This document shows positions 2,762-63,640 of a stretch of DNA of 64,000 bases, piece after piece (position 1 is the first letter of the stretch; the number at the start of each line of letters is the position of its first letter). The notes under the pieces are model-generated. The model ran no database searches, was not told the origin of the DNA, and saw nothing but the letters and a program-made list of their open reading frames with translations. This stretch comes from Vicinamibacterales bacterium (lineage in GTDB: Bacteria > Acidobacteriota > Vicinamibacteria > Vicinamibacterales > UBA8438): positions 5,712,454 through 5,776,453 of the forward strand of contig OZ242003.1 in NCBI GenBank assembly GCA_965204675.1. Direction: 5' to 3'. The position numbers were made by a program, and so were the translations under genes.

Positions 2762-2919
2762 GCCCGCCGATCGTCGCCTCCGGCTCCGCTGGGCGCCCAA
2801 CCAACCCCTGCCGGGAGTCTGCACGGTTCTACGGCGCAGACTCCCGGCGCCTCAAGCCCCGCCCTCCATCGCCCGCGGCGCCGCTCGGCCCGCGACCAGC
2901 CGCTCCGGACGCTCGGGAG
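2762..2919 (-). repeat. Dispersed hairpin repeat family, about 1.7 units, filling the dprA-topA intergenic gap
   Basis: gcccgccgatcgtcgcctccggctccgctgggcgcccaaccaacccctgccgggagtctgcacggttctacggcgcagactccc is the reverse complement of the unit seen at 23481 and 45795. A second, degraded unit follows. Confidence 0.8.
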
Positions 2920-5877: not shown

Positions 5878-6144
5878 ATGGCGCACAAGAAGGGACAAGG
5901 CAGCTCGCGAAACGGCCGTGACAGCAATGCCCAGCGTCTGGGAGTGAAGCGCTTCGACGGCAACATCGTCACCGGGGGCTCGATCCTGGTGAGGCAACGC
6001 GGACAGCGGTTCCGCCCGGGCCTCAACGTCGGCATCGGCAAGGACGACACGCTCTTCGCCAAGATCGCCGGCCGCGTGCGATTCGAGGATCACGGCGGCC
6101 GGGGACGGGCCATCAGCGTGTTGCCACTGGAGTCCGCTCCGTAG
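5878..6144 (+). CDS. rpmA: 50S ribosomal protein L27
   Basis: [61 protein letters not shown]. It is in frame inside track ORF 4699..6144, with the ATG at 5878. Confidence 0.97.
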
Positions 6145-6211
6145 GAACGGCGCGGACTCCCGCAGGGTCCGGTCGGACGCCCGGCGGAGCCGCGGGCGGC
6201 GATGGGCGGGC
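6129..6211 (+). repeat. Dispersed hairpin repeat unit overlapping the rpmA stop codon
   Basis: ggagtccgctccg-TAGgaa-cggcgcggactcc followed by cgcagggtccggtcggacgcccggcggagccgcgggcggcgatgggcgggc. The rpmA TAG (6142-6144) lies in the hairpin loop. Confidence 0.8.
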
Positions 6212-6287
6212 TCGGGGTCGGCGTCCTGCCGCCCCCCGAACGCGGGCACTAGCAGAGCGGCCGCCGCGAATCCGTACTCCTTCAGGC

Positions 6288-7514
6288 ATGTTCGTCGACG
6301 AGGTCGACATCCACGTGACCGCCGGGGACGGCGGGCACGGCTGCCTGAGCTTTCGTCGCGAGAAGTCGGCGCCCCGGGGTGGACCCGACGGCGGTGACGG
6401 CGGCGACGGCGGCTCGGTCTACCTGGTCGCCAGCCCCCACCTGAACACGCTCGTCAACTACCGTTTCCATCCGACCTACTCCGCAAAGCGCGGCGCCCAC
6501 GGCAGCGGGTCGACCCGTACGGGCCGCAACGGCCGGGACCTCCGGCTCGAGGTCCCGCCGGGCACCGTCGCGTTCGAGCACCGTGACGACGCGTTCGTGG
6601 AGCTGGCGGACCTCGTCGAGCCGGGTCAGCGCGTGATCGTGGCCCGCGGGGGCCGCGGGGGCCGCGGCAACCGGCGCTTCGTCAGCGCGACCAATCAGGC
6701 CCCGCGGCGCACCGAGCCGGGCCGGCCGGGAGAGCAGCGGCAACTCCGGCTCCAGCTCAAGCTTCTCGCCGACGTGGGGCTGGTGGGCTTCCCGAACGCC
6801 GGGAAGTCGACGCTCATCGCCCGCATCTCGGCCGCGCGGCCGAAGATCGCGGACTATCCCTTCACCACCTTGAGCCCCAACCTCGGCGTGGTCGACCTCG
6901 GCGACGACCGGAGCTTCGTGGTCGCCGACGTGCCCGGCCTGATCGCGGGCGCCCACGTCGGGCACGGCCTCGGGGACCGGTTCCTGGCGCACCTCGAGCG
7001 CACCCGCGTCCTCGTGCACCTGGTCGACGTCTCGTCGCTCAGCGGACGGGACCCGTGCGAGGACTTCGAGGTCGTCCGCCGCGAGCTGGCCTCCTTCCGC
7101 GAGGACGGTGTCGGCGTCGGGATTCGCGGACGATTGTCGGACAAGCCCCAGGTCGTCGTGGCCAACAAGGTCGACGCGCTCGACGAACCCGACCGGCTCG
7201 AACGGCTCCGCGCCCACGCGCGGCGCGGTGGAATCGACTTCCACGCGATCTCCGGGGTCACCGGAGAGGGAGTCGCCGGTCTTCTCGAGGCCGTCTGGGC
7301 CCGCTTCCGCGACTCCGACCGCGAAGCCGCGACCCGGAGCCCGCGCGGCAGCGCGGGGCGGCCTCCCGGAGGGTCGGTCGAGCGCCGGACGGAGCCGTCA
7401 GGCGACGATTGGCGGGGCAGGAGTCCGCGCCGTGGAACGGGGCGGGGCCCCGGGGAGTCGGCCGGGCGCCGGGCGGAACCGTCGGGCGACGACAGGCGGG
7501 CCAAGCCCGAATGA
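6288..7514 (+). CDS. obg: GTPase Obg/CgtA with a repeat-derived low-complexity C-terminal tail
   Basis: [46 protein letters not shown] and ANKVD motifs. The frame stays open through the repeat units to the TGA at 7512-7514, overlapping the nadD ATG. Confidence 0.95.
7336..7502 (+). repeat. Two tandem units of the dispersed hairpin repeat inside the obg 3-prime coding region
   Basis: Unit 1 is 7336-7417 (ggagcccgcgcggcagcgcggggcggcctcccggagggtcggtcgagcgccggacggagccgtcaggcgacgattggcgggg). Unit 2 is 7418-7502 (caggagtccgcgccgtggaacgggg...ggcgacgacaggcgggcc). Confidence 0.8.
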
Positions 7515-9977: not shown

Positions 9978-10218
9978 GCCCAACCGCCATCGTCGCCTGG
10001 AGCCCGACCCACCTCCAGGAGCCCACGCCGTTCCCACGGCGACTCCTGGCCCGTCAATCGTCGCCCGACGGCTCCGCCCGGCGCCCGACCGGCCCTCCAG
10101 TGAGTCTGCGCCTCCTCCGGAGGCGGCGCCGTTCCACGGCGACTCCCGGCCCGCCAATCCGCCGGTGAGTCTGCGCCTCCTCCGGAGGCGGGCGCCGTTC
10201 TACGGCACCGACTCCCGG
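9978..10218 (-). repeat. Three contiguous units of the dispersed hairpin repeat (variant with a nested palindrome), between lysA and tmk
   Basis: Units are at about 9978-10048, 10049-10148 and 10149-10218. Each starts (plus strand) with gcccNNcaatcg/gcccaaccgccatcg and ends with cggcgactccNg. Units 2 and 3 carry the extra palindrome gcgcctcctccggaggcg. The last unit contains the lysA stop. Confidence 0.8.
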
Positions 10219-11477
10219 GGCACGGGCGCCGCAACCTCCCCGGCGAGCTGCTCGTCCATCGTCTGCCGGCGGCGCACGACCCGCCAGGCCGATGCGTCGA
10301 CCATGACCTCGGCCGGCAACGGATGCCGATTGTAGTTGGACGCCATGGCGGATCCATAGGCCCCGGCGTCGAACACCGCGACCAGCTCGCCCACCGCGGG
10401 CAACGGCAGCCGCCGCTCGACCCCGAAGACGTCCGACGATTCGCAGATCGGGCCCACGACGTCGCAGGTCACCACGTCGTCCTCACGCTCCTCCACGAGG
10501 GCAATCCGGTGATACGCCCCGTAGAGGGCCGGCCGCATCAACTCGCTCATGCCGGCGTCGAGCACCACGAACCAGGTCCCGTCGGCCCGCGGCTTCACGT
10601 CGACCACCGACGCCAGCAGGACCCCCGCGGGGCCGACGATGGCGCGGCCCGGCTCGACGATCAGGGTCAACCCCGTCGGCCGGGCCGCCTCGACGAGGGC
10701 CTCCGCGTAGGCGTCGACCGGCGGCGGCTCGCCCCCCGCCTCGTCGTAGGCGATGCCCAGTCCGCCGCCGAGGTCGAGGTGCTCCAGCTTCACGCCGTCG
10801 TCGGCCAGCTCCTGCGCCAGGGCGACCACCGAGGCCGCCGCCCGCCGCAACGGCCCCAGCCCGAGCATCTGGGAGCCCACGTGGATGTGCAGCCCGGTGA
10901 AGCGCAGCCCCGCGCGGCTCGCGGCATCGCGCACGATCGCCCGCGCGTCGCCGATCGCGACCCCGAACTTGTGCCGGCTCAGGCCGGTCGAGATGTGGGG
11001 ATGGCTGTCGGCGGCGATGTCCGGATTGACGCGGAGGGCGACGCGGGCCGTCGTGCCGCGCCGCCGCGCGGCGCCCGCTATCCGCTCCAGCTCGCCCGCC
11101 GATTCGGCGTTGATGGCCTTGACCCCCAGCTCGACCGCCCGGTCGATCTCCGCCGGGGTCTTCCCCACCCCCGTGAAGACGATGTCCCCGGGGGCGAAGC
11201 CGGCCCGCAGGGCCACCTCGATCTCGCCGCCCGAGTTGGCGTCCACGAGGCCGCCGGCGGTCCGGACGACCTCGACCACCGCGAGGTTGGAGTTGGCCTT
11301 CAGCGCGTAGTGCACGGCGTGCGGCCACGGCTCGAAGCCGGCCCGGAAACGACGCACGCGCTCGCGAATGACGGCCGCGCTGTAGACGTAGACGGGCGTT
11401 CCGACCTCCGCCGCCATCGCGGCCAGCGGCACGCCGTCGCATTCCCATCCCCCGCCGCCGCGAACGAAACCCGACAT
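10200..11477 (-). CDS. lysA: Diaminopimelate decarboxylase
   Basis: HYALKANSNLAVVEVV, FTGLHIHVGSQ, LDLGGGLGIAY, EPGRAIVGPAG and VGPICESSD motifs. Start chosen at ATG 11477 (MSGFVRGGGGWECDGVPL). Confidence 0.93.
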   Translation of the reverse strand: MSGFVRGGGGWECDGVPLAAMAAEVGTPVYVYSAAVIRERVRRFRAGFEPWPHAVHYALKANSNLAVVEVVRTAGGLVDANSGGEIEVALRAGFAPGDIVFTGVGKTPAEIDRAVELGVKAINAESAGELERIAGAARRRGTTARVALRVNPDIAADSHPHISTGLSRHKFGVAIGDARAIVRDAASRAGLRFTGLHIHVGSQMLGLGPLRRAAASVVALAQELADDGVKLEHLDLGGGLGIAYDEAGGEPPPVDAYAEALVEAARPTGLTLIVEPGRAIVGPAGVLLASVVDVKPRADGTWFVVLDAGMSELMRPALYGAYHRIALVEEREDDVVTCDVVGPICESSDVFGVERRLPLPAVGELVAVFDAGAYGSAMASNYNRHPLPAEVMVDASAWRVVRRRQTMDEQLAGEVAAPVPRESVP

Positions 11478-13954: not shown

Positions 13955-16804
<2,850 letters not shown>

Positions 16805-16842: not shown

Positions 16843-16988
16843 GCCCGCCCATCGCCGCCTTCGGCTCCGCCGGGCGCCCAGCCAACCCTGGCGGGAGCCT
16901 GCCCCGTTCCACCGCGCAGACGCCCGGGGCTCCGCTCGCCGCCCAACCGACCCTGCCGGGAATCCGCACCGTTCCCGCAGACTCCCGG
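16843..16988 (-). repeat. About 1.7 units of the dispersed hairpin repeat, between the beta-propeller gene and uvrA
   Basis: gcccgcccatcgccgccttcggctccgccgggcgcccagccaaccctggcgggagcctgccccgttccaccgcgcagacgccc, followed by the truncated unit gctccgctcgccgcccaaccgaccctgccgggaatccgcaccgttcccgcagactcccgg. Confidence 0.8.
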
Positions 16989-19332: not shown

Positions 19333-19422
19333 CGGAAGCTGCCTCCCCCAACGCAGAAACCGCTGATGGCGGGCTGCATCCGGGGGGTGGTCGGCAATCC
19401 TGTACCGATCACCGTCCGGCGA

Positions 19423-19557
19423 CCGCGCCGCGGAACCGCGCGGACTCCGGCGGGTCGCCTGCGACGGCCGGGCAGAGCCGACGGCGACGGCCCGGCGGGC
19501 CGGAAGCCTGCGCCGGGAGGTCCGGCGGGCCGGGAGCCTGCGCCAGGAGGCCCGGCG
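19423..19557 (+). repeat. Dispersed hairpin repeat unit plus short tandem sub-repeats in a convergent intergenic region
   Basis: cgcgccgcggaaccgcgcggactccggcgggtcgcctgcgacggccgggcagagccgacggcgacggcccggcgggc, followed by cggaagcctgcgccgggaggtccggcgggc and cgggagcctgcgccaggaggcccggcg. Confidence 0.7.
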
Positions 19558-20984: not shown

Positions 20985-21208
20985 GCGGGCCGGGCAACGG
21001 AGAGCCGAGCCGGCGTGGCCCGTCCGAGGGCCTCTTCGGCCGCAACGGACCCGCAAGGACACGCGCCTCCTCGACCACGCGGCCTCCGATCAGGTGCGGG
21101 CCGCGGAACGGGAGAGCCGAGTCAGCGTGGCCCGTCCGAGGGCCTCTTCGGTCGCAGCGGACGCGCAAGGATGCGCGCCTCCTCGACCACGCGGCCTCCG
21201 ATCAGGTG
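20985..21208. repeat. Head-to-tail tandem duplication (2 copies of about 112 bp) of the 3-prime end of the ferredoxin-like gene
   Basis: The core of copy A (20996-21096) and the core of copy B (21107-21208) differ at about 8 positions in about 101. Both encode [12 protein letters not shown][IV]LA[RG][12 protein letters not shown] on the minus strand. Confidence 0.85.
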
Positions 21209-23328: not shown

Positions 23329-23480
23329 CCGTCTGCGCCGCAGAACGGCGCACACGCCCGGCAGCCCGTGGCGAGAGCCCCGCGCCGCACCGCGCCCGGA
23401 GGGCGCCGACAAGGGGCCGGGACGGGCCACACGCGAGTCGGCGGGGCGGACGCCTGGCGCGCGAGGGCGAGCTGAGCGGT

Positions 23481-23563
23481 CAGGAGCCTGCGCCGCGGAA
23501 CGGCGCGGACTCCCGGAGGGTCGGTTGGGCGCCAGGCGGAGCCGAAGGCGAGGATTGGCGGGC
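23481..23563 (+). repeat. Dispersed hairpin repeat unit (best-preserved copy)
   Basis: caggagcctgcgccgcggaacggcgcggactcccggagggtcggttgggcgccaggcggagccgaaggcgaggattggcgggc. It ends exactly at the stop codon of the convergent VWA gene. Confidence 0.85.
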
Positions 23564-24888
23564 TACCGCACGCCCGGCCGGCTCGAGCTGGCCCCGAAGT
23601 AGGTGTAGTGCGTGCGGTGCTGCACTTCCACGGGTCCCCGTCCCCGCACCCGCACGAGCAGCCGGCGGGTCCGGACCGTCGGCTCGGGATCGGTCAGGGC
23701 GAAGCCGAGGATGTAGAATTCGCTGGTCTCGGCGTCGATCTCGCGGAACACGTCGTCGAAGTCGTTCCGGTTGATCATGGCCCGGCCGCCGGTCTGCTCG
23801 GCGAGCGACCTCAAGCTGTTCTGGGTCGTGAAGCTCCACTCGTCGAACGAGCCCCGTCCGGTCAGGAGGAAGTCCGCGGGCCCCGGCCTCGCGGCGGCCA
23901 GACCGCGGGGGTCGACGGTGTAGAACGCGGCGTTCGCCCGGTTCGCGGCCTCGGCGAGCTCGTCGATCCGCCTCGCGAGATCCCCGTCGCCCTCCAGGCC
24001 GTCCACGTCGCCGAGCGGGGCGTCCTGCCGCAGGAGGCGCGCGATGCCCTGGTTCACCAGCCCCGGCTCCCCGCCCCCCTCGCCGTGGTATCCCCGGCGC
24101 TCCGCCAGGAACGGATTGAGGTCGTAGCCGCTGCTGAAGTAGACGACCACCTTGCGGAGGTGCTGGACCTGCTCCAGGCTCTCGACGACGTTGCGTATGG
24201 TCGTGAACGCGACCCCGGCGCGCGCCATCAGCTCGGGGGTGTACCCCCGCCTTGGCGGGAAGTTCTGGATCAGCTCGCTGGGGTCGAACCCGTCGCCGGT
24301 GATGCGCTCGGCCGTCGAGTGGAGCAGGCCGCGATCGGTGGTGACCTGGATTGCGATCGCCGACGGCCCGGTGGACACGACGGCGAACTGGTCGCCCTCT
24401 TGAATGAGGTTCTCGGCCATCTCCACGAACGCCGTGCGGGCGCGAGGCGTCAGGCCGGCCGGAATGTGCAGGTCGTCGACGAGAACCATGAAGAGTCGGC
24501 CGGTCAACTCGTCCGGCGGCCGCGGCGGCGGCGGCAGGAGCAATCCGTTCTGGGCGCGCAGACCCGGCGCGAGCTGCTCGCTGACGCGCCCGGCCTGCAC
24601 GCGCACGAGGGAGGCGACCTCGCGCACCTCGCCCTCGTCCACGACCACGAAGTCCCGGGCAATCAGGTCGTCCAGGAAGAGGCCGTCACGGTCGCGGGGA
24701 ACCACGACGAGCGTGACCAGCGTGATGCCGGACTGAAAGTCCGGCCCCGGGTCGCCGGCGCCCGGCCGGTCCGTCGGACGGAGCACCTGCGACGGGTCCT
24801 GCGCGGCCGCCGGGGCCGCCAGGGCCGCAACGAACATTGCCGCGGCCAACCCAAGAGGCGATACAACGCGGGAAGCCGATGTCGTCAT
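23563..24888 (-). CDS. VWA-domain protein (VWFA-related acidobacterial-type)
   Basis: Signal peptide, then FVVVDEGEVREV, RLFMVLVDDLHI, KVVVYFSSGYD, AAFYTVDPRGL and SEFYILGF. This architecture is typical of acidobacterial secreted VWA proteins. Start at ATG 24888. Confidence 0.85.
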   Translation of the reverse strand: MTTSASRVVSPLGLAAAMFVAALAAPAAAQDPSQVLRPTDRPGAGDPGPDFQSGITLVTLVVVPRDRDGLFLDDLIARDFVVVDEGEVREVASLVRVQAGRVSEQLAPGLRAQNGLLLPPPPRPPDELTGRLFMVLVDDLHIPAGLTPRARTAFVEMAENLIQEGDQFAVVSTGPSAIAIQVTTDRGLLHSTAERITGDGFDPSELIQNFPPRRGYTPELMARAGVAFTTIRNVVESLEQVQHLRKVVVYFSSGYDLNPFLAERRGYHGEGGGEPGLVNQGIARLLRQDAPLGDVDGLEGDGDLARRIDELAEAANRANAAFYTVDPRGLAAARPGPADFLLTGRGSFDEWSFTTQNSLRSLAEQTGGRAMINRNDFDDVFREIDAETSEFYILGFALTDPEPTVRTRRLLVRVRGRGPVEVQHRTHYTYFGASSSRPGVR

Positions 24889-24901
24889 GTCTCTCGTCCT
24901 C

Positions 24902-26827
24902 TCACTCCGCCGGCCAGGCGAGGTCTGCGCGGATCCCGGACAGGTTCCCGGCGACGCGCACGGCGGCATAGAGCCCGCCCGCCCTGAGGCTCTCGAGGTC
25001 GCGGGCCGACAGCCGCAGCCGGCCGGACGACCGGGCGCGACCGCGCCCCCCCAGCAGGTGCGCGACGGGCCCGGCGCCGCCGCCCTCGACGGCGCGATGC
25101 AGGTGGACGAACAGCACGTCCTCGTCCGCCACGCCGTACACCGAGACGGAGTAGACCAGCTCGCGGCGGGCCCGGTCGAGCTCGAACCGCCCGCGCAGGC
25201 CGGCGCCGTTCGCCTCGGCCGCGGCCTCGATGACCACCGGCGGCGGCGGCGCCACCAGGCTCGGGGTGCTGTCGGGCGGGCGGCGGTGGCCGGTCGCCTG
25301 CTCGAAGGCGTAGGCGAGGCGGATGAGGTCGGACTCGGCGAACTCGCGGCCGATCATCTCCAGGCCCACCGGCATGCCGTCGACCGCGTACCCGGCCGGA
25401 ACGGTGATGGCGGGCAGCCCCGTGATGGCGCTGAGGGCGCAGTTGCTGCCGGGCTGCGCCAGGCCCACGGGGCGGGCGGTCTGGCGAATCGTGGGGTAGA
25501 CGAGCGCGGTCAGATCGTGCTCGTCGAGGAACCGCAAGACGGCAGCCCGCGCCTCGACCCGCCGGACCAGCCGGTCGCGATAGTCGTCGGTGTCGAGGGT
25601 CTCCACCTCGAGCGACGAGCGGAGGCCGCCGTCGATGATCTCGTGGTAGAGCCCCTGCTCCACCAGCTCGGCGAGGGTGCGCACCGGGGCGCCGGGGGTC
25701 TCGGCCAGATAGGCGTCGAAGTCGCGCCTGAACTCGAGGCCGATCACCGACGCGTCCTCCAGGAACGAGCCCAGGTCGGTCTCGCCGACGTCGACGATCT
25801 CCGCCCCCGCCGCCGCCATCGCCTCCGCCCCCGCCTCGATGACGGTGCTGACCGGGCGCTCGGCGCCGCTGTCGCCCAGCAGCTCGTGCAGCACCGCGAG
25901 CCGCGCCCCCTGCAGCCCGTCGGGGTCGAGGGCGTCCCGGAACGAGGCCGGAATGCGGCCCTCGCTCCGGGCCGTCACCGGGTCGGCGGGGTCGACGCCC
26001 ACCGTGGCGTCGAGCGTGATCGCGAGATCCTCCACCGAGCGCGCGAGGGGACCGCCGATGTCCTGGGTGGTCGAGAGGGGCACGATGCCGTCGCCGCTCG
26101 CGAGCCCCCGCGTCCCCCGCAGCCCCACCAGGGCGTGATGGGCGGACGGGATGCGGATCGACCCGCAGGTGTCGCTCCCCATGCCGACGGCGCCGAAGCT
26201 CGCGGCCACCGCAGCGCCGGTGCCGCCGCTCGACCCGCCGGGGTTCCGGGTCGGGTCGTAGGGGTTGCGGGTCTGGCCGGTGAGCGAGCTGACGGTGGTG
26301 ATGCCCCGCGCCAGCTCGTGCATGTTGGTCTTGCCGAGAACGATCGCCCCCGCCTCGCGCAGCCGCCGCACCTGGGTCGAGTCGTCGGGCGGCACGGAGG
26401 TCGCGAGGGCGATGGCCCCTGCGCTCGTCGGCATGTCGCCGGTGTCGTAGTTGTCCTTCACGACGACGGGGATCCCGTGCAGCGGGCCGCGCACCTGGCC
26501 GGCCGCGCGCTCGGCGTCGAGCCGATCGGCCTCGTCGGCGGCGTTCGGGTTGATGACGACCATCGCGTTCAGCAGCGGCCCCCGCTGGTCGTAGGCGTCG
26601 ATGCGGGCCAGGTAGCCCGCCACCAGCTCGCGCGACGTCACCTCGCCGGCGTCGAGGGCCGCGGCGAGCTCGGTGATGGACCGCTCCATGACGTCGAAGG
26701 CCGCGCCGCCGGCCCGGTCTTCCACCTGACCGCACCCGGCGCCGGCGACGGTCAACAACAGGACGAACGCGATGGCGAACGCCGGGCAGCCGGACCGGCT
26801 TCGCCGCGCACCCGAGCGTACCGTCAT
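24902..26827 (-). CDS. Amidase (amidase-signature family) lipoprotein with a C-terminal CHRD-like domain
   Basis: GPLHGIPVVVKDNYDT, GKTNMHELA and NPGGSSGGTGAAVAASFGAVGMGSDTCGSIRIPS (the AS signature). The C-terminus has VLFVHLHRAVEGGGAGPVAHLL and GGLYAAVRVAGNLSGIRADL (CHRD-like). Start at ATG 26827, lipobox TVAGAGC. Confidence 0.9.
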   Translation of the reverse strand: MTVRSGARRSRSGCPAFAIAFVLLLTVAGAGCGQVEDRAGGAAFDVMERSITELAAALDAGEVTSRELVAGYLARIDAYDQRGPLLNAMVVINPNAADEADRLDAERAAGQVRGPLHGIPVVVKDNYDTGDMPTSAGAIALATSVPPDDSTQVRRLREAGAIVLGKTNMHELARGITTVSSLTGQTRNPYDPTRNPGGSSGGTGAAVAASFGAVGMGSDTCGSIRIPSAHHALVGLRGTRGLASGDGIVPLSTTQDIGGPLARSVEDLAITLDATVGVDPADPVTARSEGRIPASFRDALDPDGLQGARLAVLHELLGDSGAERPVSTVIEAGAEAMAAAGAEIVDVGETDLGSFLEDASVIGLEFRRDFDAYLAETPGAPVRTLAELVEQGLYHEIIDGGLRSSLEVETLDTDDYRDRLVRRVEARAAVLRFLDEHDLTALVYPTIRQTARPVGLAQPGSNCALSAITGLPAITVPAGYAVDGMPVGLEMIGREFAESDLIRLAYAFEQATGHRRPPDSTPSLVAPPPPVVIEAAAEANGAGLRGRFELDRARRELVYSVSVYGVADEDVLFVHLHRAVEGGGAGPVAHLLGGRGRARSSGRLRLSARDLESLRAGGLYAAVRVAGNLSGIRADLAWPAE

Positions 26828-39722: not shown

Positions 39723-40709
39723 TCACTGCTGCGTGGCCGCCGCCTCCGCGTCCTCGGCCCGGCCCGCCCGCAGGCTGTTCTCGAGCCCGTAGTTGCCCTC
39801 GTGGCAGGCGTACTCGAAGAGCTGGTACGTCGTGTCCCGGTTCAGGGGCATGGCGACGGTCCACGGCGAGGTGAACACGGTGTTGTCGTCGACGGTCACC
39901 TCGTAGGTGATGGTGTCGTCGCCGTTCCGCGTGAACCGCTCGACCACCCGCAGGTTCTCGCTCTGGGGAATGCCGCGCACGCCCCGGGTCGCGATGTTGG
40001 TGCCGATGGTGCCCTGGTCGTTGTAGTTGGTGGTCTCCACGACCAGGGTGTCGCCCTCCCAGCGCCCGCGCGCGTCGCCGTTCCACTGGCGGATGCTGTC
40101 GGGCAGGTGGGGGCTGCCGTCCACGGGGATGATGCGGGCCTCGTGGATCATCTCGTAGAAGAGCACCACGTGGCCGGGGATCTGCAGGATCTGGTAGCCC
40201 GCCCCGTAGCCCGGCGGGAAGATGCCCCCCGGCACGCCGCGGGTGATGCAGCGCTCCCACGGGGTGTGGTTCAGCCACGAGTCGGTGAGGTTGATCAGGT
40301 TGTAGTCGCGGATGGCCCGGGCCTCGTCCCGCACCGGGAGCCGGCCGTTGGGCGGGTCGACGATCATCGACCGGCGCCGCTGGTTCCGCAGGGCGTCACC
40401 GGGACCGTCGCCCCAAGGCCCCTGCGGGGGACGCGCCCGGTCCTCGACCGACTGGGGCATCGCCGGCATCCGCTGAGGCTGGTTGCTGCCGGGGAACCAC
40501 GCGGCCAGCGGGGCCAGCCGCTCGATGTCGGCCTCGTCGGGGGCCTCGAACGGGGTGGAGTCGAAGTTGGTCCACACGCCCTGGATGTCGGGCTGGCCGT
40601 CCGGCGTCCGCGGGCCGGTGTAGTGCTGCGCCCCCGCCGGCGCGGCGCCGAGGGCGACGATCGCGGCCAGGACCGCCGCGGCGCAGGCTGTGCGACATGC
40701 CGTGCTCAT
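39723..40709 (-). CDS. Secreted conserved hypothetical protein (ACHEGNY-motif family), paralog 1
   Basis: Signal peptide MSTACRTACAAAVLAAIVALGAAPAGA. Blocks IVDPPNGRLP, RIIPVDG, GRWEGDTLVVETTN, RVVERFTR and FEYACHEGNYGL are shared with the gene at 60020..61015. Confidence 0.8.
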   Translation of the reverse strand: MSTACRTACAAAVLAAIVALGAAPAGAQHYTGPRTPDGQPDIQGVWTNFDSTPFEAPDEADIERLAPLAAWFPGSNQPQRMPAMPQSVEDRARPPQGPWGDGPGDALRNQRRRSMIVDPPNGRLPVRDEARAIRDYNLINLTDSWLNHTPWERCITRGVPGGIFPPGYGAGYQILQIPGHVVLFYEMIHEARIIPVDGSPHLPDSIRQWNGDARGRWEGDTLVVETTNYNDQGTIGTNIATRGVRGIPQSENLRVVERFTRNGDDTITYEVTVDDNTVFTSPWTVAMPLNRDTTYQLFEYACHEGNYGLENSLRAGRAEDAEAAATQQ

Positions 40710-40926
40710 CAGAGAACTCTCCTTCCATCGGCGACGCGGGCTCGCCGTGCGCGCCGACTCCCTATGGTACGCACTCCGCCCGCGAGAGCCAACCTTCGAA
40801 GACGTGCCCCGCGGGACGCGAGGCGCCAAGGCACGACCGCGAGCCGACCCGGTGCGACGCGAAGCTCCAGGACGGGCGTGCTAGACTCGTATTACGGTTT
40901 GCGGATCGATACTCGGCAACGTCATC

Positions 40927-44282: not shown

Positions 44283-45638
44283 ATGACCATGCGATCCGTC
44301 CCGGCCGTCATCCTGCTCACCGTGCTCGCAGCCAGTTGCGGCGGGGGCGCTCCCGATCCCGTCAGCACCGTCGTCGCCTACCAGGGGGCCACGCTGATCA
44401 CCGGAGACGGCGGCCCGCCCATCGGGGGCGGGGTGCTGGTGGTCGACGACGGGCGCATCGTCGCCGCGGGCCGGGCCGCCAGCGTGCCGGTTCCCGAGGA
44501 CGCCACCGTGGTCGACCTCGCCGGCAAGACGGTCATGCCCGCGCTCGTCGACCTGCACGGGCACGTCGGGTTCCAGCAGGGCCTGAGCTACGACTACGCG
44601 AACTACACCCGCGAGAACCTGCTCGACCAGCTCCACCGTTACGCGTACCACGGCGTCGGCACCATCGTCTCGATGGGGACCGACCCCGGCGAGCTGGCGT
44701 TCGGGATCCGGGCCGAGCAGGAGGCGGGCACGCTGGGCGGGGCCCGGCTGCACACCGCGTTCCGCGGCATCGCGCGGCCGAACGCGGGGCCGGGGGCCGC
44801 GACCATGCGGCCGACTGCGTTCGGGGTGTCCACGCCCGACGAGGCGCGCGCCGTCGTCGAGGAGATCGCGGCCACCCGCGCCGACTTCGTCAAGATCTGG
44901 GTCGACGACCGGGGCGGCTCGGTCGAGAAGCTCACCCCCGACCTCTACGAACCGATCATCGCGGTCGCGCACGAGCGCGGCCTGCGGGTCATCGCCCACG
45001 TCTACTACCTCGACGACGCCCGCGCCCTCGTCGACGCGGGGGCCGACGGGTTCGCCCACCTGCCGCGCGACCTCGAGATGGACGACGAACTGGTGGCCGC
45101 CATCGTCGAGAACGACGTGTTCGCCATGCCGAACCTGAGCATCTCGGAACGGGGCCGGCACGTCGAGCCGCCGGCCTGGGTCGAGCACCCGCTGCTGCTC
45201 GAGTCGGTGGCCGGCGACGTCCTGGCGCGCATCCGCTCGTCGTTCGAGAACCGCACGCCCGAGGCGGCGGCGCGGGCGGCCGAGTCCTGGGCGGCGATGC
45301 AGTCCAGCCTGAAGAAGCTGGCCGACGCCGGCGCGCGCCTCGTCCTCGGCGCCGACACCGGCGTGCAGGACCACGTGCCGGGCTTCATGGAGCACCGCGA
45401 GCTCGAGCTGTTCGTCGAGGCGGGCATCTCGCCGGCCGACGCCATCCGCATCGCCACGAGCGCGTCGGCCGAGGTGCTCGGCGCCGACACCGGCCTGCTG
45501 GAGGCGGGGCGCCGCGCCGACTTCGTGGTGCTCGACGCCAACCCGATGTTCGGCATCGCGAACACCCGGCAGATAGCGGACGTCTACCTGAACGGAGAAG
45601 CGGTCGACCGGGACGCGCTCAGGGCCGGCTGGCGGTAG
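44283..45638 (+). CDS. Amidohydrolase family lipoprotein (imidazolonepropionase-like metal hydrolase)
   Basis: LTVLAASCGG lipobox, GKTVMPALVDLHGHVG (HxH metal motif), VIAHVYYLDDA and LVLGADTG. ATG at 44283 inside track ORF 41661..45638. Confidence 0.88.
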   Translation: MTMRSVPAVILLTVLAASCGGGAPDPVSTVVAYQGATLITGDGGPPIGGGVLVVDDGRIVAAGRAASVPVPEDATVVDLAGKTVMPALVDLHGHVGFQQGLSYDYANYTRENLLDQLHRYAYHGVGTIVSMGTDPGELAFGIRAEQEAGTLGGARLHTAFRGIARPNAGPGAATMRPTAFGVSTPDEARAVVEEIAATRADFVKIWVDDRGGSVEKLTPDLYEPIIAVAHERGLRVIAHVYYLDDARALVDAGADGFAHLPRDLEMDDELVAAIVENDVFAMPNLSISERGRHVEPPAWVEHPLLLESVAGDVLARIRSSFENRTPEAAARAAESWAAMQSSLKKLADAGARLVLGADTGVQDHVPGFMEHRELELFVEAGISPADAIRIATSASAEVLGADTGLLEAGRRADFVVLDANPMFGIANTRQIADVYLNGEAVDRDALRAGWR

Positions 45639-45794
45639 CGCCTCAGGCGCCCGCGCCGTCGACCCGTGCAGACACCGCGGGCGGTTCGGGCGTCGGCGCC
45701 GGCCGAGCCGGAAGGCGCTTGCCGGGACGGGACGGTGCAGACCGGCGACGGATCGGTGGGAGGGTACGGCGCCGCCGGACGGCGATGCCCGGAT

Positions 45795-45878
45795 CAGAAG
45801 TCTGCGCCGTAGAACCGCGCGGACTCCCGGACGGTTGGTCAGGCGCCAAGCGGAGCCGAAGGCGACGATTGGCGGGCC
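45795..45878 (+). repeat. Dispersed hairpin repeat unit
   Basis: cagaagtctgcgccgtagaaccgcgcggactcccggacggttggtcaggcgccaagcggagccgaaggcgacgattggcgggcc. More degraded related sequence lies at about 45670-45790. Confidence 0.85.
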
Positions 45879-60019: not shown

Positions 60020-61015
60020 CTAGTCCTGTTGCTGCTGCTCCGCCGCGGCCCGCGCCTCCTCGGCGCGCGCGCCGGCGAGGATGTTGAACAGGCCGTAGTT
60101 CCCCTCGTGGCAGGCGTGCTCGAAGAGCGGCCCGCGCGACCTCTTCATGGGCATGTCGGCCGTCCAGGGACGGGCCCAGGTCGCCGGGTCCTCCACCGTG
60201 AACGTGTACAGGATGTCGTCGTCGGCCACCCGCGTGAACCGCTCGACCACGCGCATCCGGTCGCTGGACCCGCGGAACGGGTTCTTGCCGTTGATGTTGG
60301 TGGTCTCGACGACGAGCGTGTCGCCCTCCCACCGGCCCCGCGGCACCCCCATCCACTGCCGGGTCGCCTCCGGCGCCTGGGGACGGTCGTCGAGGGGGAT
60401 GATGCGCACGTTGTGAAGCTGCTCGAGCAGGATCATCACGTGGTCGCGGTTCTGCACGATGTGGAAGTTGGCGTTGTAGCCCGCGTTCAGCATGGGCGGC
60501 CCGGCGCTGCCGGTGATGATGCAGCGGGCGCCCAGCGGCAGGTTCTCGGCCCGGTCGTACTGGCCGCCCCTCGCCTCCCGCGCCGCCCGGCGTTCGGCGG
60601 CGCGCCGCCGCCCCTCGGCCGTCACCGGCGGGAGCCGCCCGTCCGGGGGGTCGACGATCAGCGACGTGCGCAGGTTCGACGTCATCGTGGACTGGCTGCG
60701 GTCGAGCCCGAACTGCGTGAAGTCGTAGTGCACGTCGGGAATCGTGCCCGGCGTGGTCAGCGACGACTCCCGGCCCGCCCTCCCCTGCCAGATGGCCGCC
60801 GCCTCCTCCTCGGTGTAGAACGCCTTGTCCACGTCCCGAGGCCGTTCCAGCGGCGTATAGGTCTGGTTCGTCCAGAACCCCTGGAGGTCGGGGTGGCCGT
60901 ACTCGGTGCGCGGGGCGACGTAGTCGCCCTGGGCGGCGGCCGGGCCGGCGGAGCACACGACGACCGCCGCGGCGGCGGCCAGGACGCCGATCGAGACGAG
61001 GGATTGTCGAGTCAC
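60020..61015 (-). CDS. Secreted conserved hypothetical protein (ACHEGNY-motif family), paralog 2
   Basis: GTG start at 61015 with AAGGAG 7 nt upstream. Signal VTRQSLVSIGVLAAAAAVVVCSAGPAAA; blocks IVDPPDGRLP, RIIPLDD, GRWEGDTLVVETTN, RVVERFTR and FEHACHEGNYGL. Confidence 0.8.
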   Translation of the reverse strand: MTRQSLVSIGVLAAAAAVVVCSAGPAAAQGDYVAPRTEYGHPDLQGFWTNQTYTPLERPRDVDKAFYTEEEAAAIWQGRAGRESSLTTPGTIPDVHYDFTQFGLDRSQSTMTSNLRTSLIVDPPDGRLPPVTAEGRRRAAERRAAREARGGQYDRAENLPLGARCIITGSAGPPMLNAGYNANFHIVQNRDHVMILLEQLHNVRIIPLDDRPQAPEATRQWMGVPRGRWEGDTLVVETTNINGKNPFRGSSDRMRVVERFTRVADDDILYTFTVEDPATWARPWTADMPMKRSRGPLFEHACHEGNYGLFNILAGARAEEARAAAEQQQQD

Positions 61016-61493
61016 GTGACGTCTCCTTGTCACCGCGTGAGGGGGCCGGCGGTCCCGCCCCCGGTGCACGATCACGACGGTTATACCAGATCGCGGACGG
61101 CGCGGCGCGCGCGACTCCGCGCGGCCGGTTCGGTGACCCTGCGATTCTCCGGCGTACCTGGGCGTGGCAGAGCCCCCCCGGTCCACAACAGCACGCTGAC
61201 CGCGTCTCACACAAGGAACCGTCGCTTGCATGTGCGAAGCCTGTGGGAGGGGCCCTCCCCTACGGGACGCCAGGAGCCTGCGCCGCGGAGCGCTCTCGGG
61301 CCAAGTCGGATCCTGCATGAAGGGGTTGGAATGCTCCCAATCCCTTCATGTTGGGGTGAGAATCTCCTGCGGCGCAGACTCCTGCCAATGTCCTGAACGG
61401 TGTGGTTCGCGGAACGTTCTTGCGCGTCACTTATCCTGTGTTTACAGACATTTACCGCGATTCAGAGCCTTCACGAACTTTACTGCCGGGACA

Positions 61494-63311
61494 CTAGTCC
61501 CGGGCCACGGGCACGAGCTCCGTCTCCCGGCGCTCCCCGTCGCGCATGAAGACGACGGCGGCCGGCTCGTCGGCCTTGAGCAGGTCGAGCGCCCCCATGT
61601 AGTCGTAGATGTTGCCCACGGTGACCCCGGCCATCCCGACGATGATGTCGCCCGCCTCGAGACCGGCCCGCGCGGCCGGGCCTCCGGCCATGACCCCCGA
61701 CAGGCGCAGACCCTCGATCTCGGCCCCGTAGTCGGGGATGGTGCCGGTGGTGATGCGGGTCATCGCCCGCCCCGGCTGCGCGGTCCGCTCGACCGCCACG
61801 AAGTCCGGGGGCGCGGGCTCGTCGACGAGGCGCGCCGCGACCGCTGCGCCGTAGCGGGCGGTCCGCTCGAGGTCGGGGAAGTTGATGGTGTCGGTGTCGT
61901 CGCTCGGGCGGTGATAGTCGGGGTGGCTGCCGGTAAACAGGGCCAGGCTCGGCACGTCGGCCTCGATGAAGCTGATCGAGTCGGTCGGCAGGTAGGGGTC
62001 GGTGACCCGCTGGAGATCGAACCCGAACGCGCCGTTGACCTCGTCGACCAGGCCCGGCCACACGCTGCTGCTGCCGAGCCCCTGCGCGGTCAGGGCGTTG
62101 TCGCGCATGCGCCCGACCATGTCGAAGTTGACGTAGGCGGCGACCTCGTCCATCGGCAGCGGTCCGTTCCTCGCGAACTCGGCCGAGCCCAGCAGGCCGA
62201 TCTCCTCGCCCGACCAGAAGGCCAGCACGACACCGCGCGCGCGCTCCCGGCCGGCCAGCTCGGCCCCCGCCGCGAGCACCGCGGCGACCCCCGACGCGTT
62301 GTCGTCGGCCCCGTTGTGCACCTCGCCGGCCGCGTCGGCCCCGGCCAGCGAGCCGCTCTCGCCGCGCCCGAGGTGGTCGTAGTGGGCGCCCAGCGCGACG
62401 TAGGGCTCGTCGTGCGGCTCCGCCGCCGTCGGCGGCAGATAGCCGACGACGTTGTAGCCGGTCCGCCGCTCTCGGCTCACGCGTGCGTCGACGGTCACCT
62501 CGACCGGAATCTCGAAGCCGGCCACGTGGGGGTTCCCGTCGTCGATCTCCCGCTGCGCGTCCTCCAGGGTCCGGTCCGCCACCCGCTCGAACAGCGCCTC
62601 GGCCACCTCGCCGGTCACGCTGACGGCGGCGATGCCGGAGTCGGCGACCGCCGCGTCCGCGGTCATCCGCACCAGCCGGCCCGCCCCCGGCGACCGGGGA
62701 CCGGTCACCACCAGCATGCCCAGCGCCCCCCGCTGGCGCAGCGCCGCCGCCTTGAAGCGGAGGTCCGAGTAACGCGAGAAGAGCGCCCGCAGGTCGCTCT
62801 CGCTGTCCTCGGGGAAGTACCGCAGCACCAGCACGACCTTGTCGGCGACGTCGAGGGTCGCGAAGCTGTCGTAGCTGAACCCGTCGGTCTCCGGTATCAC
62901 CAGCCCGTAGCCCGCGAACACCAGCGGCCCGCTGGCCGTCGTCGACTCCGAGAACGAGAGCCCGCGCACCGCGTCGGCGAAGTCCCGGCTCTGTCCGTCC
63001 GCGGTCTCGATCGTCAAGGTGCTTCCACCGTCGCGGGCCGAGCCGGTGTACTCGAACGGCAGGCGGTAGTCGCCGACCCCCGGCAGCGGCCCCGCTCCTA
63101 TCGCTTCCAGCTCGGCGATGATATGGTCGGCGGCCTTCCGGATGCCTTCGCTCCCCGTGAACCGCCCCTCCAGCTCGTCCGAGGCCAGGTACTCGACGTT
63201 GACCCGGATCGACGACGGCTCCCCGTCCGTCCCCGACTGGGCGTACGCCCCGCCCGACGCGAGGACCAACACCGCGAGCCCCACACCGACGACTGTTGCT
63301 ACCTTGGTCAT
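61494..63311 (-). CDS. M28 family metallopeptidase with a PA domain and a C-terminal PDZ domain
   Basis: NVVGYLPP, LGAHYDHLG, GADDNASGVAAVLAAG, WSGEEIGLLGSAEF, NFDMVGR and HPDYHRPSD. The C-terminus has GLRLSGVMAGGPAARAGLEAGDIIVGMAG (PDZ). Start at ATG 63311. Confidence 0.88.
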   Translation of the reverse strand: MTKVATVVGVGLAVLVLASGGAYAQSGTDGEPSSIRVNVEYLASDELEGRFTGSEGIRKAADHIIAELEAIGAGPLPGVGDYRLPFEYTGSARDGGSTLTIETADGQSRDFADAVRGLSFSESTTASGPLVFAGYGLVIPETDGFSYDSFATLDVADKVVLVLRYFPEDSESDLRALFSRYSDLRFKAAALRQRGALGMLVVTGPRSPGAGRLVRMTADAAVADSGIAAVSVTGEVAEALFERVADRTLEDAQREIDDGNPHVAGFEIPVEVTVDARVSRERRTGYNVVGYLPPTAAEPHDEPYVALGAHYDHLGRGESGSLAGADAAGEVHNGADDNASGVAAVLAAGAELAGRERARGVVLAFWSGEEIGLLGSAEFARNGPLPMDEVAAYVNFDMVGRMRDNALTAQGLGSSSVWPGLVDEVNGAFGFDLQRVTDPYLPTDSISFIEADVPSLALFTGSHPDYHRPSDDTDTINFPDLERTARYGAAVAARLVDEPAPPDFVAVERTAQPGRAMTRITTGTIPDYGAEIEGLRLSGVMAGGPAARAGLEAGDIIVGMAGVTVGNIYDYMGALDLLKADEPAAVVFMRDGERRETELVPVARD

Positions 63312-63640
63312 CTGTCCACTCTGCTCCATCCGCTGCCACGGACGCACGCCGACAGGCTCCACGCTTGCCCCGGCACAGACCCGGATCGTAGCGCGGCGAC
63401 GACTGGCTGCACAAGGCAGCCCGGCCGGTCCGCACGGACCGGCGACCGCCTCAGGCGATGCGGTCCCGACCGCGGGACCTCAGGGACGAGGATCCGAGCC
63501 GGGCGTCGGCGGCGCGCTCCCGTCGGGCGGCATGCTCCCGTCGGGAATGCGAAGACGCGGCTTCCGCACCGCCCGCCCCGCATTGTCCGGGCCTTCCCAC
63601 CGTGGTAGAGTCGGCCGAAACAGGCACAACGGGACGCTCC

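Follow-up and report, generated by a model that had tools for sequence, protein, structure and literature searches.

A two-hairpin repeat of marine Vicinamibacterales abuts or supplies the stop codons of unrelated genes

The subject of this study is a short repeat in a 64,000-nucleotide stretch of genomic DNA from a Vicinamibacterales bacterium (GenBank assembly GCA_965204675.1, contig OZ242003.1), referred to below as the window. The repeat unit is a non-coding composite of two hairpins, 83-84 nt long and abundant in marine Vicinamibacterales (Acidobacteriota), and in the window it overlaps the ends of rpmA, encoding ribosomal protein L27, and of lysA. The unit is probably a mobile element, similar to repetitive extragenic palindromes (REPs) and miniature inverted-repeat transposable elements (MITEs), that prefers (C)TAG sites and gene ends and carries in the loop of its first hairpin a TAG that acts as a ready-made stop codon. 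A preliminary description of the window had offered, as one explanation, that the element inserts at the ends of genes and supplies a stop of its own. This is supported by the exact registers at which stop codons meet the element in a survey of related genomes, by polymorphism among strains, and by the different C-termini and TGA stops of repeat-free orthologues. Two amendments are needed: in the commonest case it is the gene's own TAG that abuts the element, with the loop TAG following 15 nt later as a second stop in the same frame, and in L27 the repeat has contributed only A-P and the stop, E-S being native.

Results

The unit has the consensus (C)[T/C]AG-GAGTCTGCGCCG-T[A/G]GAA-CGGCGCAGACTC-CTGG-AGGGTTGGTTGGGCGCCNAGCGGAGCCG(N2-3)GGCGACGATTGGCGGGC-[T/C]AG. 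Hairpin 1, (C)TAG-GAGTCTGCGCCG-T[A/G]GAA-CGGCGCAGACTC-CTG, has a 16-bp stem and a loop of 3-5 nt. Its 5' arm is GAGTCNGNNCCG, and the foot of the stem includes the flanking TAG, which pairs with CTG in the consensus fold (U-G, A-U, G-C). Hairpin 2, GGGCGCC..GCGGAGCCG..GGCGACGATTGGCGGGC, is weaker. Both hairpins are recovered in the consensus fold, and pair 61-84 of hairpin 2 covaries (CG 7, AU 6, GU 4). The pairwise covariation of hairpin 1 barely exceeds what is expected from the composition of its columns and thus says little about selection for the stem. The loop TAG had been taken to be the first three bases of the loop; the description of arm and loop stands, except that in predicted folds the T of this TAG pairs with the loop-closing A, leaving AGA or AGGA unpaired. 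The loop TAG lies 15 nt from the flanking TAG and in its frame; in 84-nt units the TAG at the 3' end, at a spacing of 84 nt, is in this frame too. The remaining frames of the unit are open, and a length of 84 nt preserves the frame.

With an nhmmer profile made from four seeds, 10-13 copies are detected in the window, whose GC content is 70-75%. The motif GAGTCNGNNCCGTAG, with at most one mismatch, occurs seven times in the window against 0.63 expected, a number reached in none of 100 shuffles. Two non-coding copies with a TAGAA loop that had been noted before are confirmed: one lies between dprA and topA (2763-2846, minus strand) and is missing in strain loci L001 and L006, the other is a full intergenic copy found by the profile search (45794-45876, plus strand). 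The loops of both are CCGTAGAAC. For a wider search in a collection of species-representative genomes we used the hairpin-2 pattern as key, so that hairpin 1 and the 5' flank stay unbiased. It matched at least 112 loci, all of them in Vicinamibacterales/Vicinamibacteria metagenome-assembled genomes (MAGs) of about 25 species; the repeat is confined to one marine or host-associated clade of Vicinamibacterales. Neither Rfam at gathering thresholds nor a tRNA scan gave a match in the 64-kb window, and our literature search found no description of this repeat family in Vicinamibacterales.

The positions of stop codons relative to the element were surveyed for 207 independent copies, out of 263 hits in total, which form 168 arrays in 1.1 Mb from about 25 Vicinamibacterales genomes/species; opposite-strand duplicates of the palindrome and ten strain loci were excluded. 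Most arrays are solitary copies (138), the others being 22 doublets, 7 triplets and 1 quadruplet. Stops concentrate at three registers. The commonest arrangement has the stop of the upstream same-strand gene directly 5' of GAGTC, which is the case in 31 of 151 arrays, and this stop is always TAG. At the second register, 15 nt downstream in the same frame, the loop triplet serves as the stop, as found in 17 arrays (TAG 15, TAA 1, TGA 1); the proteins then end in ...WESAP, RESAP, QESAP, QEPAP or QESTP, with the general form x-E-S/P-A-P. At the opposite end of the element, the TAG of a convergent gene lies directly 3' of GGCGGG in 19 of 157 arrays. Every other offset from -60 to +100 is seen three times at most. 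Altogether, 61 of the 168 arrays touch a stop at one of the three registers, and six arrays exactly span the gap between two convergent stops. The preliminary description had allowed that rpmA and lysA might be isolated cases; genes that stop at the loop are in fact plentiful in the sampled loci, so this possibility falls away.

The genes concerned are real and unrelated. Pfam assigns those that stop in the loop to HIT hydrolase, hybrid histidine kinase, acyl-CoA dehydrogenase, uridine kinase, PQQ dehydrogenase, DapF, DAG kinase, a PSD-domain protein and a PIN protein, and those that stop at the element boundary to OEP, cytochrome c, MFS, DUF1552, M1 peptidase, Trp/Tyr-tRNA synthetase, XdhC and WD40 proteins.

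The sequences at the element borders are restricted as well. Before GAGTC the triplets are CAG (67), TAG (53), CGG (28) and TGG (6), and in the loop they are TAG (89), TGG (47), CGG (12) and CAG (10). The left flank has the logo C(0.75)-C/T(0.61/0.32)-A(0.72)-G(0.95) in front of GAGTC, and the right flank, after GGCGGGC, reads T/C/G-A-G-G. The base preceding [T/C]AG is C in 75% and G in 18% of copies. CAG, CGG and TGG are transition derivatives of TAG, and AT-to-GC decay would yield them where the TAG is not needed as a stop.

A separate observation concerns stop usage in general. TAG ends about 41% of the open reading frames (ORFs) in the sampled loci (265/649), a sample biased to repeat-containing loci and counted before duplicates were removed, and 14 of 43 in the window. 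In the same repeat-biased sample, about 18% of TAG stops are element-associated.

In the window, rpmA (5878-6144, plus strand; 88 aa; Pfam Ribosomal_L27 in the strain loci) ends with CTG GAG TCC GCT CCG TAG (L-E-S-A-P-stop). A full copy detected by nhmmer overlaps this end and continues downstream (6127-6210, plus strand), with hairpin 1 at about 6129-6161 and hairpin 2 at about 6165-6210. The final codons and stop of rpmA (6130-6144) overlap hairpin 1, and the stop itself is the loop TAG (6142-6144). lysA (10200-11477, minus strand; 425 aa) ends with CGG GAG TCG GTG CCG TAG (R-E-S-V-P-stop; stop at 10200-10202), the protein terminating in ...PVPRESVP; here the 5' arm of hairpin 1 supplies GAG TCG GTG CCG and its loop the TAG (together 10200-10214). 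Both ends had thus been read correctly as coming from the 5' arm of hairpin 1. The wider claim, that L27 and LysA share a repeat-encoded E-S-x-P tail, holds for LysA, in which a tail of about ten residues is new, and has to be narrowed for L27, in which E-S is native and only A-P-stop is new.

This distinction comes from orthologues. Repeat-free L27 and LysA end differently, with TGA. Four sister species have rpmA without the repeat, ending CTC GAG TCC TGA, ATC GAG TCC TGA or CTC GAA TCC TGA; their L27 reads ...P[L/I]ES-stop, with about 15 nt to the ATG of obg. The repeat family is present elsewhere in these four species, and their LysA is 86-89% identical to that of the window. More distant repeat-free relatives have L27 ends PLES-TGA (GAG AGC TGA), PLE-TAG or IPPEA-TAA. 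As judged from this comparison, the E-S of the window L27 is native, or at least identical to the native residues, and only GCT CCG TAG is new, the old TGA having gone. Two histories would give this junction: insertion of the element immediately before the native GAGTCC, or a subsequent deletion between two copies of GAGTCC that joined the gene to the element.

The remainder of the rpmA-obg spacer (6211-6287, plus strand) holds a degenerate hairpin-1-like remnant, GGGGTCGGCGTCC...GAACGCGGGCAC, followed by GAATCCGTACTCCTTCAGGC. In an alignment, made without statistics, this last segment resembles the native 15-nt spacer of the sister species, GAGTCCTGATTCC...CAGGC. A copy at rpmA is present in all 11 strains. 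Eight sequences have a single copy in the spacer, L001 and L010 have a second one nested directly after the loop TAG (GCTCCCTAG^GAGTCTGCGCCG..., where ^ marks the junction here and below), and L007 has a second copy in tandem.

Two side observations concern L27. Variants of 143-144 aa (P0001 and P0047, from other assemblies) match the window L27 as far as ...PLES or ...GRAI and then run through repeat and spacer in a different frame; they are probably frameshifts or assembly errors within the repeat. In the repeat-free locus L127 (2750-2790; GCA_035461425.1), rpmA ends CTC GAG TAG and is followed by TGGCGTGACTCC. The GAGT/ACTC complementarity at this site recalls the outer stem of hairpin 1 and could be a coincidence or an old remnant.

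The lysA copy belongs to a three-copy array between lysA and tmk (9989-10215, minus strand; nhmmer), composed of copies at 10146-10215 (partial), 10050-10146 and 9989-10048, and lysA carries a copy in all 11 strains. LysA relatives of at most 77% identity all end in ...RRRQTIDDQLACEE-stop, and the native end can be summarised as LA[CG]EE or an overlap with tmk. In L136, a repeat-free locus examined at the DNA level, the lysA stop is TGA; in L138, which bears repeats, lysA overlaps the start of tmk (GAG AGC CGA TGT TGA). Within the clade of at least 84% identity, assorted tails follow QLAGE, among them ECAP-stop and ECAP-RE[S/R]AP-stop, which differ by 15 nt. The ten extra residues of the window LysA, AAPVPRESVP, together with the three-copy array, thus look like insertions into the last lysA codons. 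The first and second copies of the array (10150-10200 and 10090-10125, minus strand) carry in the 3' arm of hairpin 1 a further small palindrome, GCCTCCGGAGGAGGC, for which a branched fold is predicted.

An exact look-up of the L27 sequence yielded ten syntenic metagenome loci, 94-99% identical to the window over 16 kb and in some cases on contigs of 6.7-7.3 Mb. Presence and copy number of the repeat differ among these closely related strains at topA, uvrA, obg and rpmA. The 3' end of topA provides a clean empty/filled pair in which the TAG stop pre-existed: five strains read GCC TAG^CTGGTGG, and L004 and L007 read GCC TAG^GAG[T/C]C...GGCGGG^ at the same TAG.

In obg (6288-7514, plus strand; 408 aa), the ORF runs through two in-frame copies (7334-7415 and 7418-7500, both plus strand; profile search) about 12 nt before the native stop. 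Among the strains, zero, one or two copies of about 84 nt are inserted in frame, giving Obg proteins of 354 aa (L004, empty site), 378 and 388 aa (one copy) or 408 aa (two copies), with the Pfam domains intact. The empty site in L004 reads ...GCG AAC AG^G CCC GAA TGA, and other strains have CAG^GAGCC...GGGC^CAA GCCC. The repeat-encoded C-terminal tail of the window Obg is about 55 aa long and rich in R, G and P. obg tolerates two copies because the unit is open in its other frames.

The ends of uvrA are more varied. The native end is LFAS-TGA, as in the sister species and L007, and the window protein ends ...REPAPHA-TGA. Its R-E-P-A-P segment (CGG GAG CCC GCG CCG; 13964-13978, minus strand, within a tail region at 13955-13999) appears, by comparison with the sister species, to be a remnant of the 5' arm of the repeat. 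L001 ends ...GCG CCG TAG^GAGTC, a new copy being nested right after the loop TAG, and L004 ends ...CCG TCG GAG TCC GCG CCG TAG. Further tails in other strains are LFAQGPAP-stop or LFAPELAPSESAP-stop. The sequences of L001 and L004 support loss of a stop as the probable route to the uvrA tail. New copies thus lie immediately 3' of TAG at the rpmA, topA and uvrA sites, and the empty topA and obg sites hold TAG and CAG, respectively, at the junction; the right-hand junctions are imperfect, and clean sites number two only.

Inverted copies of the repeat flank genes for LRR and TAtT proteins, a methyltransferase and an IS630-type transposase. The last belongs to an insertion sequence (IS) of the IS630 type (L028, 3085-4275; OZ220728.1), with DDE_3 and HTH domains and the ends GTGTCCTGTCCC.../...GGGACAGGACAC, which lies between two head-to-head repeat copies. 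The IS has entered, with TA duplication, a CTAG that marks the 5' boundary of one repeat copy. We considered this transposase as the mobiliser of the repeat and rejected it, because the inverted repeats of the IS bear no relation to the ends of the repeat; the IS is just another user of the CTAG.

The remaining copies in the window lie between genes. Two tandem copies occupy the spacer upstream of uvrA (16844-16988, minus strand; nhmmer), and a weak or degenerate copy (19415-19489, plus strand; nhmmer E = 8e-4) lies in a convergent intergenic region. A full copy at 23480-23562 (plus strand) abuts with its 3' end, GGCGGG, the TAG stop of a convergent gene (23563-24969, minus strand; CTA at 23563-23565 on the plus strand). 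A weak copy at 45643-45717 begins 5 nt past a TAG stop at 45636-45638. A hairpin-1-like motif, GAGTCTGCGCCGCAG, which the profile search missed, is found at 61367-61381 (minus strand) in the spacer between the genes at 60020-61318 and 61494-63362.

The window contains other repeated sequences. A 98-nt direct repeat, unrelated to the element, is present at 20999-21096 and 21111-21208 (93% identical, 112 nt from start to start). Stretches of 70-200 nt within 39726-40213 and 60032-60483, about 20.3 kb apart, are 72-75% identical; they lie in the minus-strand genes 39723-40829 and 60020-61318, which look like paralogues.

Discussion

The observations can be brought together as follows. The element would insert preferentially at (C)TAG-like sites, probably with a duplication of 2-4 bp. 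In a genome of 72% GC, such sites would mostly be amber stop codons, where an insertion should be harmless, and copies would accumulate at gene ends on either side. Translation would enter the 5' arm (GAG TCN GCG CCG, or E-S-A-P) and halt at the loop TAG, either after the flanking TAG is lost or after the element lands or recombines within the last codons of a gene. Were the first TAG lost, a step of five residues would result, as between uvrA of L001 and L004, and rpmA and lysA would have been hit within or beside their last codons, not at a TAG stop. Copies that enter a dispensable tail, as in obg, would become extra peptide. What we infer from these data is that the element spreads by transposition, along with the duplication size, the enzyme and the order of events at rpmA and lysA.

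A palindromic (C)TAG-like target with a short duplication is the simplest reading of the flanks. Such a target would account for stops next to either end of the element, for the tandem arrays and for insertions into the element's own loop. Unrelated proteins come to share tail residues because the repeat carries the in-frame loop TAG.

Several points weigh against this explanation. The element has no terminal inverted repeats (TIRs), since its ends as read from the consensus, GGAGTCTGCGCC... and ...GATTGGCGGGC, do not match in inverted orientation. We could link no transposase to it, and a six-frame scan of 1.15 Mb of sampled DNA with regular-expression motifs, a weak test, revealed no Y1 transposase like the REP-associated tyrosine transposases (RAYTs). 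The polymorphic uvrA and dprA-topA sites are no clean empty/filled pairs, as other indels intervene. The rpmA junction is masked by 6 nt, GAGTCC, that are common to the native gene end and the start of the element, and could point to recombination or microhomology rather than transposition. Insertion at a TAG stop with later loss of that stop had to be rejected as the origin of the tails of rpmA and lysA, the two genes first flagged, as the native stops in the sister species are TGA. The survey, finally, used genes from a home-made ORF filter based on GC content at third codon positions, whose starts are unreliable and of which only the stop positions were used, and its loci were fetched by the repeat pattern, so that its counts are not genome-wide frequencies.

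The preliminary description had set beside insertion the alternative that selection keeps the hairpin at the stop. Its candidate roles at or on the stop would be to protect the 3' end of the mRNA, to end transcription between genes, or to slow termination and ribosome release, the last being an effect reported for Escherichia coli REPs no more than 15 nt from a stop. The repeat is indeed oriented mainly in the sense of the upstream gene (124 arrays versus 52, and 81 versus 24 between same-direction gene pairs, counted before some 25 duplicate hits were removed). G-T wobbles outnumber A-C mismatches in the stems on the given strand, which is what folding of this strand as RNA would lead one to expect; all 11 strains have the rpmA and lysA copies; and effects of REPs on translation near stops are a precedent, as cited in PMC12306157. 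Against this stands the strain polymorphism at topA, uvrA and obg, where stop-associated presence and copy number vary among sequences 94-99% identical, which argues against selection as the main cause and leaves room for a side effect. The sister species, which also harbour this repeat family, lack a copy after rpmA, and stops are met by both ends of the element, 31 arrays at the 5' end and 19 at the 3' end. Hairpin 1 has no T-run downstream of it in the window copies, and a ribosome would have to unwind the stem before it could halt at the loop TAG. We therefore regard selection as an improbable explanation for the arrangement.

It seems to us quite improbable that the repeat owes its spread and reshaping mainly to recombination, slippage or gene conversion between short identities, and not to a transposase. 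Stop coincidences would in that case be tolerated rearrangements. The GAGTCC identity at rpmA, the GGGAG on both sides of the lysA array, the 15-nt unit by which LysA tails differ, the tandem arrays with variable copy number, and the failure to find a transposase (in the weak 1.15-Mb scan) or a terminal inverted repeat all fit such a process. It does not account for the dispersal of about 138 of 168 arrays as solitary copies over many loci and about 25 species, with sharp ends and CYAG on both flanks, nor for the clean insertion at the topA TAG, which shares no homology with the element beyond TAG; recombination alone creates no new dispersed copies. Chance resemblance, two GC-rich genes ending in similar codons beside palindromes, could initially draw on the small number of cases (two). 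With 67 stops at three exact registers in 168 arrays, and a motif count that no shuffle in 100 reached, the survey refutes it, and its remaining probability is vanishingly small.

A stronger form of the transposition model is also conceivable, in which the element homes to amber stops by a hairpin-guided, TIR-less mechanism, an unrecognised Y1/HUH or other enzyme reading (C)TAG beside the stem. We consider this doubtful. If homing were true, stops and the element's own loop would be its safe harbour, and the in-frame loop TAG a built-in fail-safe that limits read-through to five residues at most. It would then be the first described miniature element to target stop codons, and a systematic source of x-ESAP tails on housekeeping proteins.

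The two-hairpin repeat can be compared with several known systems. With the IS630/Tc1-mariner MITEs, whose target TA lies within CTAG, it has in common that it is short and non-coding, with CTAG-like sequences on both flanks that are compatible with TA or CTAG duplication, and the IS630-type IS of L028 uses such a CTAG at a repeat boundary in the same genomes. Unlike these or IS5-type MITEs, the element lacks terminal inverted repeats, and the sole IS seen has unrelated ends. IS200/IS605-derived palindrome-associated transposable elements (PATEs) make no duplication and insert in one orientation relative to their target. By the generally known traits of PATEs, the repeat resembles them in its two different subterminal hairpins without inverted repeats, in a short conserved motif 5' of the left hairpin and at the right end, in head-to-tail arrays and in nesting into its own motif. 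Unlike PATEs, it meets stops with both ends, and our weak scan saw no Y1 transposase; the 19 convergent stops at the opposite end fit a duplication or a palindromic target better than insertion in one orientation.

The GTAG REP/RAYT system offers a precedent for the stop codons themselves. GTAG REP termini often supply the TAG stop of a flanking ORF (Di Nocera et al. 2013, PMC3733652), so stop-supplying repeat termini are already known in kind from other bacteria. Further likenesses to that system (PMC3733652) are GC-rich hairpins in high copy number, mainly downstream of genes and between same-direction and convergent ORFs; a TAG-containing tetranucleotide beside the stem; G-T pairs in the stems; and a terminus that supplies the TAG stop, here the 5' end in 31 arrays and the 3' end in 19. 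Hairpin 1 is likewise a short palindrome in high copy (207 copies in 1.1 Mb), but the repeated unit here is 83-84 nt long with a second, different hairpin. Unlike GTAG REPs, which have an unpaired GTAG at one end, the present element has CTAG/CYAG on both flanks, base-paired at the stem foot, and a second in-frame TAG in the loop that also serves as a stop and creates the shared x-ESAP tail. No RAYT accompanies it in the DNA covered by the weak motif scan. The differences lie in the repeat family, its two-hairpin composite structure, the CTAG-like motifs on both flanks, and the in-frame loop TAG with the shared x-ESAP tail.

Two other systems bear on single features. Rickettsia palindromic elements, as cited in PMC3733652, are palindromic repeats that insert in frame in coding genes and add a peptide segment. 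Like these and other intragenic REPs, the two obg copies add in-frame peptide to an otherwise intact ORF; unlike them, most copies here are at or just past a stop rather than internal, and sequence family and host phylum differ. Escherichia coli REPs at most 15 nt from a stop are reported to reduce translation (ref. 17 of PMC12306157). The likeness lies in a stable hairpin directly at the stop of the upstream gene. The effect in E. coli was shown experimentally for extragenic repeats, whereas the stops described here lie inside or against the stem.

The two-hairpin repeat appears as a selfish sequence that rewrites the C-termini and stops of essential genes (L27, LysA, UvrA, Obg, TopA) within one species and splits gene pairs that formerly overlapped, such as lysA-tmk and rpmA-obg. 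Anyone annotating these MAGs or using them in phylogenomics should take this as a warning: gene ends are variable, ORFs may be fused or extended, as in the long L27 variants, and the high TAG usage is partly a product of the element. If the preference for (C)TAG is confirmed, the repeat would be a clean natural model in which to study how mobile DNA is kept to harmless sites by its choice of target, and to ask whether a hairpin at the stop codon affects termination.

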